A stretch of 7,940 nt of DNA from a virus (IMGVR_UViG_2778261527_000012); one strand, 5' to 3'; positions 1 through 7,940 are shown, numbered from the stretch's first letter. Program-made: numbers and translations. The notes: generated by a model from the letters alone, not told the origin.

Positions 1-543
1 ATCAAACGACGATGTGGTTTTCGTCCCCAAATCCGTACTGGATGCGCTGGCGCTGTGGGTATGCGATTTAATGCCGTCCTGTTCCTGAGACAATACGGCC
101 CGACCACTGGCAGGTTTGCCCTTAATCGTCCAGCCACGCATATCAGGGATCACGCCTGACGGATAAGCCGCTGCAAGTTTCGGGTATGCAGATTTGTCAA
201 AAGTCTGCCCCTGCATCAGGGCATAGCCAGACGGAACGGTATCTGATGGCCACGGGATTGGTGCACCGACTGGATAAAACTCTGCAGGAGGATGAGCCGA
301 GGTGTAAAGCTGCGCCCACGGCGACCAGTTTGCGTCGGTCGTATCCCGTCGTGAACGAATAAATGCCGGAGCATGAGCACCGCTTGTACCACTCCAGCCG
401 ATGAGTAACTCACCTTCGCCAACGGCTGTCATCCCTTTCAGGTGAATGATATTTCCATACGCTGTTGGATATCCGTTGTTATACACCTCGTATAAGTCAG
501 AACTTTGTCCGGTCGCCCGTGAGTCAGAATAAAGGCGCAAAAA
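1..543 (-). pseudogene. Side tail fibre protein fragment (lambda Stf / StfR-like), 5'-truncated; continues beyond window start
   Basis: The minus-strand frame is open from 543 to 1, so it is absent from the ORF track because it has no stop in the window. It translates to ...[157 protein letters not shown], which matches my recollection of the distal part of lambda-type side tail fibre proteins (PIPWPSD...[34 protein letters not shown]). An in-frame TGA at 546..544 lies immediately upstream and there is no RBS-preceded start (only TTG 540, GTG 486, ATG 432), whereas intact Stf proteins have several hundred residues N-terminal to this region. The 68-aa ORF 216..422 in the track is an alternate frame of this region. 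Confidence 0.6.
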
Positions 544-546
544 TCA

Positions 547-1335
547 TCACGCATATTCCTCCTCCCCGCCATGCATGATCTCCACCATGCGCTGCGTCAT
601 TCGGACAAATCCATTTTCAATAGCCTGCTGATAATCAATGATCACCAGCGCCGACTCCTCGAAAAGGCACTGAATTTCAGCGGGGGCATGAGCGTAATAG
701 TCCGCAATTCTGCTGAAATTAAACACTGTGTGACGTTCTGCCGCACACAGGAGGAATTTCTCAATATCAGGATCAAGGGACGCCGAACGTATCCGGCTGA
801 TCAGCTCCTGAGTTTTCGTATCGTCGTACAGTTCACTGATATCCGGTTTACCGCCCGACGGCTCATAAACAGGCGTATCAATTTTCGTCGTATACGGCTC
901 CTCCTCATTTCCTGTACCGGGCAAAACATCCGTCAACAGTTCATCAATTTCTGTCGGGATGAAGCCTGTCAGGGAGACATCAAAATCAGCATTGATTAGG
1001 TCCGACAGCTCCATCCGCAACAGATCTTCATCCCAGCCAGCATTCATCGGCAGGCGATTATCTGCCAGGCGGTACGCCTTTTTCTGCTCATCCGTCAGGC
1101 CAGACAGAACAATGACCGGAACAGAATCCATTTTGAGCATTTCAGCCGCCATAACACGACCGTGACCCGCAATAATTTCGCCCTTTTCGTCAATCAGCAC
1201 CGGATTAGTCCAGCCGAATTGCTTAATACTTTCTACCAGTTGTGCCACCTGCTCAGTACTGTGCGTCCTGGCATTGTGCGCATACGGTGACAATTCTTGT
1301 AATGGGCGATAGACTATCTTTAATTTCTCGCTCAT
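547..1335 (-). CDS. ParB-like nuclease domain protein (ParB N-terminal / sulfiredoxin-fold), 262 aa
   Basis: Complete ORF with ATG start and a weak AAGG Shine-Dalgarno 5 nt upstream. The N-terminal ~95 aa follow the ParB N-terminal domain pattern (YRPLQELSPYAHNAR ... IIAGHGRVMAA ... LADNRL; GxGR-type motif), followed by an acidic C-terminal half. The gene ends in tandem stops TGA-TGA (549..544). Such genes usually sit just upstream of terminase genes in lambdoid phages. Confidence 0.85.
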   Translation of the reverse strand: MSEKLKIVYRPLQELSPYAHNARTHSTEQVAQLVESIKQFGWTNPVLIDEKGEIIAGHGRVMAAEMLKMDSVPVIVLSGLTDEQKKAYRLADNRLPMNAGWDEDLLRMELSDLINADFDVSLTGFIPTEIDELLTDVLPGTGNEEEPYTTKIDTPVYEPSGGKPDISELYDDTKTQELISRIRSASLDPDIEKFLLCAAERHTVFNFSRIADYYAHAPAEIQCLFEESALVIIDYQQAIENGFVRMTQRMVEIMHGGEEEYA

Positions 1336-1349
1336 ACAGCCTTGCTTTA

Positions 1350-1386
1350 TGAATAAAACGCACCCCAGCAGCCAGTGCTACTGGGG
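1350..1386 (-). terminator. Possible intrinsic terminator between trkG and the ParB-like gene
   Basis: Minus-strand RNA would form CCCCAG-(12 nt)-CTGGGG followed by GCGTTTTATT. The stem is imperfect, the loop long and the T-tract interrupted, so this is weak. Confidence 0.25.
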
Positions 1387-1472
1387 GCGGAGGTGTTGCT
1401 GGTAAAGTTAGGTATTGGATCAATGAGTGAGTCAACATAATATTAAACTCACAATTATAAATCAGCCATATA

Positions 1473-2930
1473 TTAGGAGCGCCAAAAAAAACCTGAAAAC
1501 AATATAATAACAGGATAAATTTCAAGGCGACCAAGAATCATAGCTATGCACATTAAATATTTTGCAATGTCATTAAGCACTCCGAATGACGATGCAGTAG
1601 CCCCAAAACCTAATCCCATATTATTAATACATGCAGCCACTGTTGCAAATGATGTAAGAAAATCATATCCCATACCATTTAACACCAGTATAAAAAACAC
1701 CGTGAAGAGAGTATAAAGAAAAAAGAAACTCCATACAGACCTCATTACACGATCTGTAACTATCTTCCCTCCTACATTTACACTTAACAACGCTCTGGGA
1801 TGAGAAAGTTGATTTATCTCGTGTTTGCTTTGTTTGAAAAGTATAAGAAATCGAAGTGACTTAATTCCACCACAGGTTGAACCGATACATCCCCCAAAGA
1901 AACTTGACAACAGCAAAAACACTATCGTGTGCGTGGGCCAGTTTGCATAATCCTGCGTAGCTAAACCATTATCAGTGAGCATGGAGCTGGCAAGAAAAAA
2001 CGAATGAATAAAACTTCCATGCAAGTCATACATACCTATATGCCAGACCTGGAAAGAGGTAACAATGATCACCCCTAAGGCTATTAACAGAAAGAAACGA
2101 AGTTCAATATCTCTGATTAAAGGTTTTATCGTTTTTCTGCTAATAACAATATACCAAAGAGTGAAGTTGAAAGCCGATAGCAGGGAAAAAGAACCAGCCA
2201 CCAGCTCAACCAAATAGTTATTAAAATATCCGATACTCTCGCTATGAGTTGAGAAACCACCAAGCGAAACTGTGGAAATCCCGTGACAAATAGCATCAAA
2301 CAAAGACATTCCTGCAAGTCTATAACAGACAATACAAGCAATACCTAATAAAGAATAAGTTATCCACAGTGTCCGTGACGTATCGGCCAGGCGGGGAGTG
2401 AGTTTGTCATCCTTAAATGGCCCCGGCATTTCTGACTGATAAAGCTTTGCACCACCAATACCCAATAATGGCAATACAGCAACCGCCAGAACAATAACTC
2501 CTAAACCACCTATAAAATTTAACTGTGACCGATAGTACAAATATGCCCGAGGTAATGAACTAACATCATCAATTACAGTTGCTCCTGTTGTTGTTATTCC
2601 AGAAACCCCTTCAAACAGAGCATCAATGAACGTTAAATTAAGTTCTGAGTCAATCCATAAAGGGAATGCACTAATAACAGAAAACAAAATCCAAAACATT
2701 ACAATTATAATAAACCCATCACGGGTACGTAATTGAATGCCAGATTTCTTAGTTGTATACCACGCTCCGCCACCAATGCAAAAAAATATAACGAAAGTTA
2801 TAAAGAAAACGAACAGGCTTTTTTCTTTATAAAACAATGCTACAACCATTGGTGGCAACATTGAAAGACTATAGAGCCAAACCAAGAACCCACACATATG
2901 AGTAACAACTCTTACATGAGATGTATTCAT
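1473..2930 (-). CDS. trkG: TrkG/TrkH-family potassium uptake membrane protein (485 aa from MNTSHVRV)
   Basis: Long multi-span hydrophobic ORF with repeated glycine-rich selectivity-filter-like segments (GVSGITTTGATV, LGGFSTHS, GGCIGSTCGGIK, NMGLGFGATAS) typical of TrkH/KtrB transporters. It is near-identical to what I recall of E. coli Rac-prophage TrkG, which begins MNTSHVRVVTHMCGFLVW. The ORF track starts 6 codons earlier (ATG 2948), whose AAGGTGG motif is about 14 nt upstream; start choice is uncertain. The gene is visibly more AT-rich than its neighbours. Confidence 0.93.
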   Translation of the reverse strand: MNTSHVRVVTHMCGFLVWLYSLSMLPPMVVALFYKEKSLFVFFITFVIFFCIGGGAWYTTKKSGIQLRTRDGFIIIVMFWILFSVISAFPLWIDSELNLTFIDALFEGVSGITTTGATVIDDVSSLPRAYLYYRSQLNFIGGLGVIVLAVAVLPLLGIGGAKLYQSEMPGPFKDDKLTPRLADTSRTLWITYSLLGIACIVCYRLAGMSLFDAICHGISTVSLGGFSTHSESIGYFNNYLVELVAGSFSLLSAFNFTLWYIVISRKTIKPLIRDIELRFFLLIALGVIIVTSFQVWHIGMYDLHGSFIHSFFLASSMLTDNGLATQDYANWPTHTIVFLLLSSFFGGCIGSTCGGIKSLRFLILFKQSKHEINQLSHPRALLSVNVGGKIVTDRVMRSVWSFFFLYTLFTVFFILVLNGMGYDFLTSFATVAACINNMGLGFGATASSFGVLNDIAKYLMCIAMILGRLEIYPVIILFSGFFWRS

Positions 2931-3067
2931 ATCTAAATATTCTTTCAATTATAACCACCTTGCTGCAATATTATGATTATACTGTATAAAATTTAACTCC
3001 TCTTAGATCTTACTTCACTGTTCCTTATGAAACAATCATCAAAATGAATCATATTGTAGTTAAGATT

Positions 3068-3532
3068 TTACTTTAAACACTGCTCGGTTATGTATTGCTG
3101 AGCACCTTCAAGTTGGGCCTGCATCATTACCAGTCGTTCCCGGAGGGTGAAATAATCCCGTTCAGCGGTGTCTGCCAGTCGGGGGGAGGCTGCATTATCC
3201 ACGCCGGAGGCGGTGGTGGCTTCACGCACTGACTGACAGACTGCTTTGATGTGCAACCGACGACGACCAGCGGCAACATCATCACGCAGAGCATCATTTT
3301 CAGCTTTCGCATCAGCTAACTCCTTCGTGTATTTTGCATCGAGCGCAGCAACATCACGCTGACGCATCTGCATGTCAGTAATTGCCGCGTTCGCCAGCTT
3401 CAGTTCTCTGGCATTTTTGTCGCGCTGGGCTTTGTAGGTAATGGCGTTATCACGGTAATGATTAACAGCCCATGACAGGCAGACGATGATGCAGATAACC
3501 AGAGCGGAGATAATCGCGGTTACTCTGTTCAT
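3068..3532 (-). CDS. Rz: Rz i-spanin (inner-membrane spanin subunit), 154 aa
   Basis: [102 protein letters not shown]... is near-identical to lambda Rz as I recall it: N-terminal TM anchor followed by a coiled-coil periplasmic domain. The ATG at 3532..3530 overlaps the R stop in an ATGA arrangement. The track's GTG start at 3544 is an upstream extension. Confidence 0.92.
3127..3312 (-). CDS. Rz1: Rz1 o-spanin (outer-membrane lipoprotein spanin subunit), 61 aa, embedded in Rz in the +1 frame
   Basis: [57 protein letters not shown]... has a lipoprotein signal peptide with lipobox VVGC and a proline-rich mature part, near-identical to lambda Rz1. It lies entirely inside Rz in another frame, the classic embedded spanin arrangement. 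Confidence 0.9.
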
Positions 3533-4026
3533 TGCTGACCCCACAAACAGATTTCACGCTCAATCTCACGACGAGTCATGAGACCTTTCCATTGCTTACC
3601 GCCAGCATATGTCCAGCGACGTAGCTGATCACATGCGCCTTTGATATCGCCCTGGTTTATTTTGCGAAGAAGCGTCGATGTTCTGAAATTGCCAGCACCC
3701 ACGTTGTAAACGAATGAGTAAAGAGCGCCGCGCGTTGTTTCCGGTATATCGACTTTGATGTACGGGTTAATTTGTCTGGCGACAGTGGCAAGGTCTTTAT
3801 TCAAGAGTGTTTTGCATTCTGCTTTGGTATACGTTTTACCGAGCATGATGTCTTTTCCTGTATGCCCGTGACATACAGTCCATACACCAACAATATCTTT
3901 GTATGGTATGTAGCTGACACCTTCCAGACCATCGTTACCACTTGGGCCAGTGATTAACACTGATGCTATAGCAATTGCTCCGCCACCAATAGCAGCAGCA
4001 ACGGCTTTTCGTAATGATGGAGGCAT
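3529..4026 (-). CDS. R: SAR endolysin (phage-21 R-type lysozyme with N-terminal signal-arrest-release domain), 165 aa
   Basis: The N-terminus [27 protein letters not shown] is a Gly/Ala-rich weakly hydrophobic SAR segment, followed by a T4-lysozyme-like catalytic region ([24 protein letters not shown]; E-x8-D-x5-T pattern). The sequence matches my recollection of phage 21 R almost residue for residue. Its start overlaps the S stop (TAATG at 4028..4024). Confidence 0.93.
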
Positions 4027-4241
4027 TATTCACCTCTCGCAGCCTTGCGCTTATCTTCTTTAATCTTGAAATAAAGGTTTGTCAGGTACGTCAGCAGGCC
4101 AAATACCAGACTACCCAGCACACCGATTGCAGCCCACTGTGACGGAGTTACTCTATCGAGCAACTGTAAAAACCAGTAGCCAGCACTGCCTGCGGAGGTG
4201 CCGTAGGCAATGCCTGTTGAAATTTTGTCCATGGATTTCAT
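4026..4241 (-). CDS. S: Class II pinholin, phage-21 S-type, 71 aa, with dual-start motif (antiholin from M1, holin from M4)
   Basis: [71 protein letters not shown] has two TM segments and a charged C-terminus. The Met-Lys-Ser-Met dual start (ATG 4241 and ATG 4232) is as in S21. A GGAGGTGAGG Shine-Dalgarno lies 4-13 nt upstream of ATG 4241. The track's 90-aa version (start 4298) is a spurious upstream extension. Confidence 0.9.
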
Positions 4242-4340
4242 AGCCTCACCTCCGCACGGAACGGATGGCATAGTTATTATGTGTAGGCTTTCAGACACAT
4301 CAATCAGAGCCTTAATTGATATATATGCTGGAGACGATGC

Positions 4341-4367
4341 AATATAAAAAGCTCGCCGTAGCGAGCT
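4341..4367 (-). terminator. Rho-independent terminator downstream of the second TolA-like lipoprotein gene
   Basis: Minus-strand RNA: AGCUCGC-UACG-GCGAGCU (7-bp GC-rich stem, 4-nt loop) followed by UUUUUAUAUU. On the plus strand the hairpin is followed by TAATAAAAT, so it is effectively unidirectional for minus-strand transcripts. Confidence 0.6.
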
Positions 4368-4492
4368 AATAAAATGTATTTCTCTGATATTATGTTTATT
4401 TGTATTAGCTCAGACTTGACATCACAGGTTTCGTATATAGAACATCATCAAATCTGTCAGTTTGCTATGAATGAGATATAGTAATTGAAGAG

Positions 4493-4888
4493 CTAACCTC
4501 GCATGTCAAAGCCAGATTTCTGAAAATCTCTGTAGACTTCCGGATTGTTGAAGGCCGGAAATTTGGCTTTATGAGCTGCGGACTTTATCGCTTCGCAATA
4601 GGCTTTATCACCGTTACTGGTAGATATTTTTAACGCCGTGCCATCCTGAGAGAATTCCATATGCAACCTGCATTTTTTCCCTTTCCAGTTATGCGGCTCA
4701 TCAAGTTTGGCATTAATTGCAGCTCTGATTCCCCGCGCTTGCGCCCCCCATTCATCCTGATCATCCCAGCGTCCTGAACTGCAACTACCTGTAGCAGTAG
4801 TTTTGTGGCAATCTGAAGGGTGTAAAGGTGTGCATCCCGCAACAAAACCGACCCAAAAAGTCAACATAACGATTTTCTTTAATCCCAC
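4493..4888 (-). CDS. Lipoprotein with TolA C-terminal (domain III)-like domain, 131 aa (paralog 2, more divergent)
   Basis: GTG start preceded by a GAGGAG Shine-Dalgarno. Signal peptide MGLKKIVMLTFWVGFVAGC with lipobox VAG-C. The C-terminal ~80 aa (GIRAAINAKLDEPHNWKGKKCRLHMEFSQDGTALKISTSNGDKAYCEAIKSAAHKAKFPAFNNPEVYRDFQKSGFDM) align in pattern with the other paralog and with the C-terminus of TolA as I recall it, including the two conserved Cys. There is an extra Cys-rich linker (CTPLHPSDCHKTTATGSCSS). Confidence 0.7.
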   Translation of the reverse strand: MGLKKIVMLTFWVGFVAGCTPLHPSDCHKTTATGSCSSGRWDDQDEWGAQARGIRAAINAKLDEPHNWKGKKCRLHMEFSQDGTALKISTSNGDKAYCEAIKSAAHKAKFPAFNNPEVYRDFQKSGFDMRG

Positions 4889-5038
4889 TTCTTGCTCCTC
4901 AATCCATTAAAATCTCAGCAATAGTAGTTGTTACGTCCGCCACTGGCTCAGAGCTGACTATCCGCTAAATTTAGCTCAGTGCCGTAGCTGTGTCAGAACA
5001 AACCTAAGCCGAAACCGTTTATTACAAAACAATAAATA

Positions 5039-5467
5039 TCAGGGTTTAAAATCCAGCACCCCATTTTGAAATACTTTATATACTTCCGGCGAAGGGGGGG
5101 CAGGTATATCAGCATTCTTTATCGCATTCATCGCTTCACGACATAAATCGAGGTCTCCACTTTCTCTTTTAACCTCCAGTAGAAGGCCATTCGGGGCCAT
5201 ATGCATTCTCAGTGTACACTCTTTTCCTGAATACTTACTCGCATCCCCGAACTGTTTTTCGATGGCGCTCTTGATTTGATGGGCATACAGACGGATATCC
5301 TCACTAACATCAGAAGTACGTTCAGATGAACTCACATACTGTGTCTCTATTGCTTTATCGGAGTAATATGATGTACGGTCATGATAATTTGTCGATACAG
5401 CATCAGTGCACCCGATAATAATCCCACTAATAATCAACGTAAGAATTGATGCGCTACGAAAACCCAT
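5039..5467 (-). CDS. Lipoprotein with TolA C-terminal (domain III)-like domain, 142 aa (paralog 1)
   Basis: ATG start with a GAGGAAAA Shine-Dalgarno 5 nt upstream. Signal peptide MGFRSASILTLIISGIIIGC with lipobox IIG-C. The C-terminal domain YAHQIKSAIEKQFGDASKYSGKECTLRMHMAPNGLLLEVKRESGDLDLCREAMNAIKNADIPAPPSPEVYKVFQNGVLDFKP closely parallels the E. coli TolA C-terminus as I recall it (...YAGQIKSAIESKFYDASSYAGKTCTLRIKLAPDGMLLDIKPEGGDPALCQAALAAAKLAKIPKPPSQAVYEVFKNAPLDFKP). The identity is from memory and not computed. Confidence 0.8.
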   Translation of the reverse strand: MGFRSASILTLIISGIIIGCTDAVSTNYHDRTSYYSDKAIETQYVSSSERTSDVSEDIRLYAHQIKSAIEKQFGDASKYSGKECTLRMHMAPNGLLLEVKRESGDLDLCREAMNAIKNADIPAPPSPEVYKVFQNGVLDFKP

Positions 5468-5496
5468 TTTTCCTCACATATGTCATATAGTAAAGG

Positions 5497-5526
5497 ATTA
5501 TATATACCGTTGTTTTGGACGCTCAA
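5497..5526 (-). promoter_or_regulatory. Candidate sigma70 promoter for the TolA-like lipoprotein cassette
   Basis: Minus strand: TTGAGC (plus 5526..5521), an 18-nt spacer, then TATAAT (plus 5502..5497) within a TATATATAAT run, about 30 nt upstream of the lipoprotein-1 ATG. The 18-nt spacing is slightly long; alternative registers give 16-17 nt. Confidence 0.45.
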
Positions 5527-6055
5527 ACAGCGAATCAGATCAAATAAAACGCACATTTGTTAACATTTACACAAAGTCTGCGTGGGATATTCTGAAAGAA
5601 TATCCATAATGTGGAGAGAATCTATTGAAGTGCATGGTGCCGGGTGCCTCCCGGTGAACAAAATGTTCGTGATACCTGTCGGCGACAGAAAAGGTTAATG
5701 GTATCACCCCACCGCACAGGGGGATTCACCATGCAGGAGTTTTCTTAGCAAACTCACTGCGCGCCCGGCAACTCCCAACCACATAAAATGCGGAGTTTGT
5801 GGTATTTATGCATATAACTCGCAGGAATTATCTTAAAAAACTGATGTCGATCCGGATTAAAAAGAAGCAGGTCATCATCAGATGACTGGAAAAAAGGAAA
5901 ACAAAAAATACTCATCATACAGTTTTGATTGCAGGGATGAGCCTGCTATGCACAATATGCAGAATATAAGCAAGATAAAAATATGCAGGCATATTATTTC
6001 GGATTTTGTTATTAACACAACCTTTTTAATAATCATTTGGCATACAATAAACCAG

Positions 6056-6084
6056 CCCAAAAAGAACCGCCTAAACAGGCGGTT
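6056..6084 (-). terminator. Rho-independent terminator (minus-strand transcripts)
   Basis: Minus-strand RNA: AACCGCC-UGUUUA-GGCGGUU (7-bp stem) followed by CUUUUUGGG. The plus-strand reading lacks a T-tract. Confidence 0.6.
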
Positions 6085-6404
6085 GGTCAATACAAAGGAT
6101 GCTTCGTCTTTATTATAGTAATCTGAGGCGTCGGGTGTCTTGTATCAGACAACATATTGTCCCGCTAAACAGCGAATTACAAACCACCCTGCAATGATCT
6201 CTCATCTCATTTTATATGAGTTGACGACATCAGGATAACGCATCATCAGCCCCTGCCAAGAAATATCAAAACTCCCGCCAGCAATGTGTTATCACAATAT
6301 TGTAAAAAAAACACAGCACCGAAACTATAACTGGTCTCTGTTATAATTTGGAGCAGAAAGACCAGTTGCCCAACTAGCAGCATTCTCCCCTGCTTTCCTG
6401 ACGT

Positions 6405-6431
6405 AAAAAAACCGCATTAAGCGGTTTTTTT
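6405..6431. terminator. Symmetric bidirectional intrinsic terminator about 80 nt downstream of the Q stop (candidate tR'-type terminator)
   Basis: AAAAAAACCGC-ATTAA-GCGGTTTTTTT: a CCGC/GCGG stem flanked by A7 and T7, so either strand gives a hairpin followed by a 7-U tract. Confidence 0.65.
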
Positions 6432-6511
6432 ACGATGTCCATGTCTGCAATCCGCCTCGCGATACAGCTTTGCGAAGCATAGCAAAATTGAAGCAGTTTA
6501 TACGTAAGAAA

Positions 6512-7054
6512 TCAAGCCATTTTCTCAGCAAATGATTCACGCATGGGAATATATAGGGCATACTCAGCAACAGCTAACCAATTAGCAATCCGTTTTTCGC
6601 ATGTGCTAAAACACCACTCTGGGTGTGCATCATTTAGCAATTCAGCCATTTTGCGCTTAGTCATCCCCCGCCCTTCATAGCGTTGCCGGAGAATGCAAAT
6701 CAATCCTGGATGCTCTGCCAGCACCTCACTTATGACTCGATCAATACATAACGCCTCTGCATCAGTACAATGCGCCAGCCAGCTCTTTTGCTTGCCGTTG
6801 ATCATCTCTCGCAAAAACGCTTCCAGCTCAGCTTTCTCTATTCCCGCTTTTTTCATTCTGCGCAGGGCTTCATTAATGGCTGTTTTCGTCAGTTTTTTGG
6901 ATGCCAACAACTGATTGAACATATTCCCTGACCTGCCACCGCCAATATACGACCAGCGCCCCCACATACGTAGTTTTCCCTGAATCCAGACACTTTCCAG
7001 CGTGGTGAGGCGAAGGTGTTCTCCGCTTTTTCCTGTATTCGTTGGGTAAATCAT
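6512..7054 (-). CDS. Late-gene antitermination protein Q-like, 180 aa
   Basis: It is the last gene of the nin-type operon and directly precedes the terminator and lysis region, which is the canonical Q position in lambdoid genomes. Size is right and it has a C-terminal Cys cluster (HCTDAEALC ... WCFSTCEKR) compatible with a Zn-binding element. Its start overlaps the upstream gene's stop (ATGA at 7054..7051). The call rests on position plus general resemblance, not a verified alignment; which Q family (21, 82 or lambda type) is undetermined. Confidence 0.65.
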   Translation of the reverse strand: MIYPTNTGKSGEHLRLTTLESVWIQGKLRMWGRWSYIGGGRSGNMFNQLLASKKLTKTAINEALRRMKKAGIEKAELEAFLREMINGKQKSWLAHCTDAEALCIDRVISEVLAEHPGLICILRQRYEGRGMTKRKMAELLNDAHPEWCFSTCEKRIANWLAVAEYALYIPMRESFAEKMA

Positions 7055-7341
7055 AAATGACCTTTCTTTCTCCAGATTTCTTGTGTGCGAAAAACCCCTT
7101 CAGCATGCATCAGGCGCAGTTCTTCTTTGGTGTAATCGCTGGTTTTTACCCGCCCGTCGATTAGATCGTGGCATGAGCTACAGGCTATCGCCGCCTGCAT
7201 ATCGTGTGGTTTTGTCGCTGTTCCGCACGTCCCCGCCAGCCTGTAATGCGCCAGCACAGAGGTTTCGGGATTGTGATTGCAGTAGCCAGGGATTCTGATC
7301 TGGCACATCTGGCCTTTAGCCGCTTTACGTAAATTCACCAT
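7051..7341 (-). CDS. DUF1364 family protein (YbcO-like, putative Zn-binding nuclease), 96 aa
   Basis: MVNLRKAAKGQMCQIRIPGYCNHNPETSVLAHYRLAGTCGTATKPHDMQAAIACSSCHDLIDGR... closely resembles E. coli DLP12 YbcO as I recall it (CQVRIPGVCNGNPETSVLAH ... IACSACHD), with conserved Cys/His positions. It is translationally coupled on both sides (TAATG with the upstream gene, ATGA with Q). Confidence 0.8.
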   Translation of the reverse strand: MVNLRKAAKGQMCQIRIPGYCNHNPETSVLAHYRLAGTCGTATKPHDMQAAIACSSCHDLIDGRVKTSDYTKEELRLMHAEGVFRTQEIWRKKGHL

Positions 7342-7940
7342 TACGCAAACTCCAGTAGTTGTGCGGCCACATTTTCAACTTCCTCCTGAGAGGAGAATTT
7401 ACGAAACAGAATCCAGTTCCACAGCACATTCAGTACAGATTTATAAACCTGCTGAAACTCGACTTCGTCCATATTCGCAAAAGCGATGGATTTTGCCCGA
7501 CGCCCACGGCTACCGTCCGGATAAATATGCTCGGTGTAAAATCCGGCCTGAATGGTTACCCACTCGCGGAAAGCCTCAAACGACTTTAGCAACGCCGTAT
7601 CCCGGGTTCTACGAGTCGCAACGGTGTTAAGGTATTGCTCTGCGGCATCACTCAGGGCTGGCGTGTGTTCCCGACCAACTGATTCGCACAGGTAATCAAC
7701 GAAACCAGACAGCAGTTCTCGTTCGCGAGGCGTGATCGCCCCACCGACCGGAGTCCAGTAATCGAATCCCAGTTGCAGGAGTTTGAAAAAACGCTTGTGG
7801 AATGCGTAGTTACGCACACGCTTAAAGTCTGCGTGTATCCACTCACCTATTTTGATTTGATGCAGAAAATCGCAACTCTCCGGCGTCGCCGGGAGAAGTA
7901 AACCAGAAGAAGTTTGTTTGACCAGTTGTATATGCGCCAT
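7341..7940 (-). CDS. Lambdoid nin-region protein, probably DUF1367 family (YdfU-like), at least 199 aa
   Basis: Long ORF with typical E. coli codon usage whose stop overlaps the start of the DUF1364 gene. The ATG is formed by the last three bases of the window, so the true start may lie beyond the window. Family assignment is from recollection of gene order in Qin/Rac-type prophages, not from a verified alignment. Confidence 0.55.
   Translation of the reverse strand: MAHIQLVKQTSSGLLLPATPESCDFLHQIKIGEWIHADFKRVRNYAFHKRFFKLLQLGFDYWTPVGGAITPRERELLSGFVDYLCESVGREHTPALSDAAEQYLNTVATRRTRDTALLKSFEAFREWVTIQAGFYTEHIYPDGSRGRRAKSIAFANMDEVEFQQVYKSVLNVLWNWILFRKFSSQEEVENVAAQLLEFA

Follow-up and report, generated by a model that had tools for sequence, protein, structure and literature searches.

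The window (the whole stretch of 7,940 nucleotides analyzed here, to which all coordinates refer) carries a phage-21-type lysis cassette within a truncated Rac prophage of Escherichia coli. In all probability the ~23.7 kb that this prophage lacks was lost very recently, in a single microhomology-mediated deletion, and the time elapsed since has been too brief for neutral decay, which would explain why the cassette is still intact. A deletion so young makes the intactness of the cassette uninformative about any benefit to the host. The genes of interest all lie on the minus strand, and their positions are collected in Table 1. The type of cassette, its mechanism, the Rac prophage itself, and the idea of working lysis modules surviving in defective lambdoid prophages are all already known.

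Table 1. Features of the window, listed in the order in which the minus strand is read
Feature	Position	Strand	Score or remark
DUF1367/NinB-like gene	7940-7341	-	
YbcO-like gene	7341-7051	-	
DUF1133 gene, Q-like late antiterminator candidate, 180 aa	7054-6512	-	PF06576, 356 bits; PF06530, 26.1 bits
~60-nt block adjoining the Q-like gene, presumed late promoter and Q target	6453-6511	-	
Strong hairpin with U-run, tR'-like, first terminator after the Q-like gene	6430-6405	-	dG -19.7 kcal/mol, z -5.8
Weaker terminator-like hairpin, second	6084-6065	-	z -2.1
STnc100 sRNA family match	5764-5578	-	RF02076, 86.6 bits
Lipoprotein with TolA C-terminal domain, first	5467-5039	-	
Lipoprotein with TolA C-terminal domain, second	4888-4493	-	
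Third terminator-like hairpin, T-run, ~110 nt upstream of S	4367-4350	-	dG -13 kcal/mol, z -4.9
S, phage-21-type pinholin, dual start	4241-4026	-	PF04971, 120.9 bits
R, SAR endolysin (GH24 lysozyme), 165 aa	4026-3529	-	PF00959, 154.8 bits
Rz, inner-membrane spanin subunit, 154 aa	3532-3068	-	PF03245, 179.5 bits
Rz1, outer-membrane lipoprotein spanin subunit, 61 aa	3312-3127	-	PF06085, 69.5 bits
trkG, low-GC cargo gene marking Rac-type prophages	2948-1473	-	119 nt downstream of the Rz stop
ynaK, full-length ParB-like, 262 aa, last intact gene before the deletion	1335-547	-	PF02195, phrog_620
44-aa remnant ORF made by the deletion	438-572	-	
Deletion junction, 7-bp microhomology TAAGTCA	493-499		
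Stf-type tail-fiber gene fragment, without start codon, running off the window end	1-492	-	

Identity of the prophage and age of the 23.7-kb deletion

The window is 99.4–100% identical to Rac loci flanked by intR and ttcA and stops short of the attachment site. On the strength of this match, the element is the E. coli Rac prophage, marked by trkG, a gene with a GC content of 0.35–0.40 as compared with 0.47–0.53 in the neighboring phage genes. Positions 493–7940 are colinear with the complete Rac prophage of strain S21 (CP010230), with 3 mismatches in 7,448 bases, and positions 1–499 correspond to the 3′ third of the tail-fiber gene of the same prophage, 23.7 kb away. The tail-fiber fragment of the window is 98.4% identical to positions 6395–6893 of locus L009, inside a 1,024-residue gene, and positions 1–492 represent part of the C-terminal fragment (the last ~305 residues) of the tail fiber. 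The complete S21 prophage has the same Q-like gene, cargo, cassette, trkG, and ynaK as the window; there, ynaK is followed by terminase, portal, a P22-like capsid, a lambda-like tail, J, Lom, the 1,024-residue tail fiber, and Tfa, and none of the structural genes is flagged as a pseudogene. Relative to this prophage, ~23.7 kb (879702 to 903394 of the record) are missing from the window, the deletion having removed terminase through most of the tail fiber. A preliminary description of this DNA had stated that the structural genes are deleted, and the two matches, adjacent here and 23.7 kb apart in the complete prophage, establish that this is correct for the locus.

Seven base pairs (TAAGTCA) are common to the two matches, and at this overlap codon ~20 of the gene following ynaK is joined to the tail-fiber sequence, an arrangement that looks like the product of one microhomology-mediated deletion. 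Among 5,426 complete genomes, none contained the exact junction as an uninterrupted match; the closest junctions, in MSHS 472 and two other genomes, span 69 nt more across the junction. The remnant ORF at this point consists of the first ~20 codons of the 310-residue gene that follows ynaK, continued out of frame into tail-fiber sequence.

The cassette of the window differs from that of the complete S21 Rac at 2 of 1,174 positions; one difference is synonymous and the other affects R residue 8, where the window has the common residue. No change private to the window was present in the cassette among the twelve trkG-linked cassettes compared. The divergence from the complete prophage is ~4 × 10−4 per site, which corresponds to ~0.5 substitutions expected across the cassette, so that an intact cassette is the neutral, or null, expectation. 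"Recent decay" is therefore sufficient to account for the intact cassette, and selection is not needed. For the preservation of the lysis module the preliminary description had proposed either recent decay or selection for controlled lysis that benefits the host. The first explanation is supported by the near-identity to the complete prophage and by the lack of private changes; nothing at this locus supports the second, and the deletion being too young, the host-benefit half of that reading is unsupported here. A prophage must have been truncated long ago for its intact cassette to count as evidence of domestication, and the time depth in this case is essentially zero. A test for relaxed selection based on private substitutions in lineages that lack structural genes was set aside: these substitutions are dominated by clustered synonymous blocks, which point to allele exchange, and the window has none of them, leaving the test powerless.

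Many wild E. coli have a Rac prophage that is structurally far more complete than the one in K-12. The K-12 Rac prophage (rzpR′ pseudogene, rzoR, trkG, and ynaK, with relatives at ttcA) has a nearly identical 3′ part of Rz, Rz1, trkG, and ynaK but has lost Q, S, R, and the 5′ part of Rz, while keeping some tail remnants; the window, in contrast, keeps the whole segment from Q to Rz and has lost terminase through most of the tail fiber. Records such as vB_EcoS-683R6 and its relatives were considered as isolated phages of the Rac type and rejected, since the source paper describes prophages predicted with PHASTER; as predicted prophages, they provide no evidence that Rac makes infectious particles. 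The ynaK gene is open over 262 codons in the window and in many other strains, and PGAP often confines its annotation to the first ~86 codons and labels the gene a truncated pseudogene. These calls are apparently modeled on the 87-residue YnaK of K-12, which is itself a truncated form.

The lysis cassette

Positions 3068–4241 of the minus strand comprise a complete cassette of the phage 21 type, namely S, R, Rz, and the embedded Rz1. The four genes match their Pfam families at 70–180 bits, as compared with curated cut-offs of 22–28, and the PHROGs assignments are concordant with Pfam, S falling in a holin phrog and Rz matching phrog_13 across its whole length. Neither a frameshift nor a premature stop was found in any of the cassette genes. 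The S and R genes overlap by TAATG and the R and Rz genes by ATGA, the ATG of Rz lying on the stop codon of R. The gene order, the overlaps, the MKSM dual start, and the placement of Rz1 within Rz are all shared with phage 21 (curated genome OL657228).

The S match to PF04971 (cut-off 26) extends over profile positions 1–63 of 64. The N terminus, MKSMDK, is the same as that of S21 and provides a dual start at Met1 and Met4, downstream of the Shine-Dalgarno sequence GGAGGTGA; the start at Met1 gives a 71-residue antiholin and the start at Met4 a 68-residue holin, as do S21-71 and S21-68 in the curated phage 21 annotation. Residues 1–26 are identical to those of S21, and 64 of the 71 residues are identical overall. 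Six of the seven remaining residues are those of the working phage 434, and the seventh, Arg30, is at a position that varies between Gln, Lys, and Arg. The 64 identities suggest that S, like S21, would form small holes that depolarize the membrane without passage of the endolysin. R differs from the crystallized R21 (3HDE) only by A73T and M98T, or 2 of 165 residues, and from RrrD of DLP12 (4ZPU) only by A73T and V158I. Its residues 1–72, which include the N-terminal SAR region, are the same as in R21, and the catalytic triad, Glu35, Asp44, and Thr50, is kept. From this near-identity, R is predicted to be released from the membrane and activated when the membrane potential collapses.

Rz has an N-terminal membrane helix. 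Rz1 lies wholly within Rz in a different reading frame and has a lipobox with its acylated cysteine, LVVVG|C, and a proline-rich stretch; the periplasmic cysteines, Cys29 of Rz1 and Cys99 and Cys152 of Rz, are kept. The C termini of Rz and Rz1 co-vary as one allele, which is also carried by rzpR/rzoR of K-12, whereas phage 21 has a different co-varying allele, the main difference between its two spanin proteins and those of the window. The preliminary description had listed a complete cassette with intact starts, overlaps, and motifs, a dual-start pinholin, a SAR domain together with a catalytic region in R, and an embedded Rz1 with a lipobox, and each of these features is present as described. 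Alignment to S21 and R21 revealed no inactivating substitution, and no change was seen in catalytic, SAR, lipobox, or cysteine residues. The cassette is 97.5% identical to deposited genomes of lambdoid phages, some with laboratory hosts recorded (for example, PhiR11_1 and mEp332), and its pN/pS relative to phage 434 is 0.10. It is apparently a working lysis set of the ordinary phage 21/434/DLP12 type, as judged from these comparisons.

The Q-like gene and the region upstream of S

The protein encoded by the DUF1133 gene scores 26.1 bits against the Q21 family profile (PF06530), a borderline value relative to the cut-off of 26, and is matched at 2e-79 by phrog_753, annotated as "anti-termination protein Q-like." When a profile built from 29 sequences was compared with the Protein Data Bank, Q21 was the sole significant match (4.9e-5). 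The AlphaFold2 model of the protein is weak (pLDDT 58.5, and below 50 in the N-terminal third), and its fold matches were used only to back the profile result; with this model the top 11 Foldseek matches were all Q21 (probability 1.0, TM 0.45–0.60) and nothing else credible was found beyond the Q21 chains. These results point to the DUF1133 protein as a distant homologue of the Q21 family of antiterminators, with a predicted antitermination activity.

In phage 21, pR′ and its Q-binding element come after the Q gene and lead to a pause element and then a terminator. The order in the window is parallel, but the antiterminator is only distantly related to Q21, and where phage 21 has tRNAs between Q and S, the window has 2.2 kb of cargo made up of an sRNA-like element and two TolA-like lipoproteins. 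The window contains no tRNA genes, whereas relatives carry tRNA-Thr and tRNA-Gly at the corresponding position. Three terminator hairpins separate the Q-like gene from S. About 60 nt after the Q-like gene are kept even between loci whose Q genes have diverged to ~90% DNA identity; past this block homology breaks, and both versions of the locus go on to a hairpin with a U-run. A candidate late promoter, TTGATT-17-TTCAAT at 6515–6487, was read by eye; the consensus promoter scan did not call a late promoter downstream of the Q-like gene. Inspection by eye of the ~60-nt block revealed no Q-binding repeats like ATTGAGCA/AATGAGCA, the Q21-type repeats of the phage 21 binding element were not found in the window, and a Q-binding or pause element could not be identified downstream of the Q-like gene.

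The Q-like gene and the terminators named in the preliminary description are thus real. The complete Q-gated switch that it assembled from them is a different matter: a distant relative of Q21, the hairpins, and the layout speak for such a switch, but no binding or pause element is identifiable and 2.2 kb of cargo precedes S. Control of the cassette by Q is plausible and well motivated, and the region is best regarded as a candidate switch by analogy with phage 21.

From the near-identity of the lysis proteins to characterized ones, we infer the following course of events. On derepression of the prophage, the Q21-family protein would act on RNA polymerase that initiates a short distance past the Q-like gene, allowing transcription to read through the three terminators into S, R, and Rz/Rz1. 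R would pass through the Sec system and, anchored by its SAR helix, stay inactive in the inner membrane. The 68-residue pinholin, delayed by the 71-residue antiholin, would then form small holes, and the membrane potential would collapse; R, once freed, would cleave the murein, leaving the Rz-Rz1 spanin to fuse the inner membrane with the outer one.

It is very unlikely that the cassette is inert, whether from a failure to make Q, a dead late promoter, or a disabling substitution. The result of the consensus scan and the three terminators before S are in keeping with an inert module, and the early region lies beyond the window, which stops at the start of the DUF1367 gene; in addition, A73T of R is absent from R21, RrrD, and phage 434. 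However, structurally complete Rac prophages have A73T and the same S, Rz, and Rz1 alleles, the functional residues of the cassette are unchanged, and a cluster of 1,220 member sequences matches the Q-like gene at 99% identity.

In some relatives of this Rac prophage, ~8 kb of cargo, in part convergent, lies upstream. A cargo hotspot separates the Rac replication genes from DUF1367 (loci L001, L014, L015, L017, L020, and L021); depending on the strain, it contains a block of genes for an MFS transporter, γ-glutamylcyclotransferase, and a LysR protein, the IteA/IteS anti-phage system, QueH, KilA-N, or hokD. Some of the hotspot genes are convergent on early transcription and could affect whether Q is expressed.

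At the first terminator, a match to the isrK family of Rfam (21.6 bits as compared with a threshold of 50, E 0.26) was set aside; the terminator hairpin by itself probably accounts for it. The sub-threshold match, at 6405–6478 of the minus strand, coincides with a presumed short leader RNA that would extend from the candidate promoter to the first terminator. The STnc100 match, located in the interval from the Q-like gene to the TolA-like genes, is full-length and well above the gathering score of 47; the element is also found in phage mEp460, and the family has been related to PasD sRNAs (2026 preprint).

The two TolA-like lipoproteins are paralogous, with 29% identity to each other, and both belong to PHROG 5772, which has no known function. 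The first aligns to domain III of E. coli TolA (E 5e-28). The pair is 99.9% shared with phage mEp460, and PGAP often flags one of the two genes as a truncated tolA pseudogene. The analogue in phage 21 is a gene with a TonB C-terminal domain that is located downstream of bor, past the lysis genes. A search of the literature on prophage TolA-domain lipoproteins found nothing relevant; as a speculation, the two proteins might be decoys for TolA-binding colicins or for g3p of filamentous phages.

Retention of the cassette among Rac prophages

Among the 5,426 complete genomes, 1,550 have trkG, 667 have the full 21-type cassette joined to trkG, and 857 have the junction between ynaK and terminase. 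With these numbers of genomes for the last two arrangements, Rac would be suited to a phylogenetic test of lysis-module retention. Cassettes were compared in 14 evenly spaced, non-laboratory, trkG-positive genomes, a sample in which the requirement for trkG, 119 nt from Rz, inflates the apparent retention of the cassette. Head genes were kept in 8 of the 14, and the cassette was intact in seven of these, the eighth having a frameshifted Rz. In the other six, head genes had been lost at different junctions; five cassettes were intact and one had been lost through an IS3-associated deletion. The rate of intact cassettes was therefore similar with (7/8) and without (5/6) head genes.

The same data bear on the proposal that the segment from Q through S, R, and Rz is kept by selection after loss of the structural genes, its controlled or low expression aiding the host through murein turnover, vesicle control, biofilm formation, or release of goods, as has been proposed for DLP12. 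The lysis operon of DLP12 is reported to be transcribed and to influence vesicle production, cell wall maintenance, and biofilm, and host benefit has been put forward in print as the reason why this defective lambdoid prophage keeps a working lysis operon (PMC7918800). The DLP12 cassette of K-12 (essD-rrrD-rzpD/rzoD), which is identical in phage 434, is 95.6% identical in nucleotide sequence to that of the window over S, R, and most of Rz; PGAP (NCBI) gives genes of the window type the names essD, rrrD, and rzpD. As in the window, the cassette is intact in a prophage that is unable to make particles. Several independent head and tail deletions, in the window and in ET729, MSHS 472, FORC_081, BL12, E1316, E105, and EC12, spare the cassette, and the five intact cassettes in six headless elements of the sample would also fit selection.

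Against selection, the deletion in the window is too recent and has been followed by no private changes, whereas DLP12 is an old remnant. The upstream regions of the two are unrelated beyond ~15 nt before the S start, and the Q gene of DLP12, quuD, is of a different type; a host-responsive promoter of DLP12, if there is one, is therefore not shared, and the regulatory evidence from DLP12 is not transferable to the window, where a terminator is located directly upstream of S. In the survey, conditioning the sample on trkG excludes by construction the deletions that enter from the trkG side, the intact rate is alike with and without head genes, and the K-12 Rac and ETEC1739 have lost the cassette despite keeping trkG. 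Selection of this kind is accordingly an improbable explanation for the window. The broader proposition, that Rac elements without virion genes repeatedly keep Q, S, R, and Rz because the host uses the module, is also one that we regard as unlikely; the use could be regulated autolysis, murein turnover, vesicle control, or a suicide response on derepression. If it were true, Rac would be a second and much more widespread case of lysis-module domestication beside DLP12.

The cassette might instead persist because it lies beside trkG, a potassium transporter gene that may be useful to the host, with deletions that take out head and tail genes tolerated only if they stop before trkG, a limit that would also shield the adjacent cassette. 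All of the deletions seen end in or just after ynaK and spare trkG, and 1,512 of the 1,554 records that match trkG do so at 99% identity or more. The trkG-ynaK block, with the adjoining Rz, is also found in lambdoid prophages at the lambda (L016 and L018, bio/ybhC region) and icd (L022) attachment sites; its presence at several sites, and not only in Rac at ttcA, identifies trkG as part of a mobile cargo module. However, sampling required trkG, so that its universal retention is circular, selection on trkG in the sampled strains is an assumption, and the cassette would be protected from one side only. We consider the chance that this proximity accounts for the cassette to be low, and the recent date of the deletion remains the preferred explanation.

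At the boundary between R and Rz (window ~3532–3536), three unrelated sets of holin and endolysin genes are joined to one Rz/Rz1-trkG segment in different strains (loci L012, L013, L016, L019, and L023). The sets are the 21-type, a class II holin with YdfR and a lysozyme, and a lambda-type holin with a GH24 enzyme. Homology to the window begins in these loci at cassette position 706–710, which indicates that the R/Rz boundary is a recurrent recombination breakpoint.
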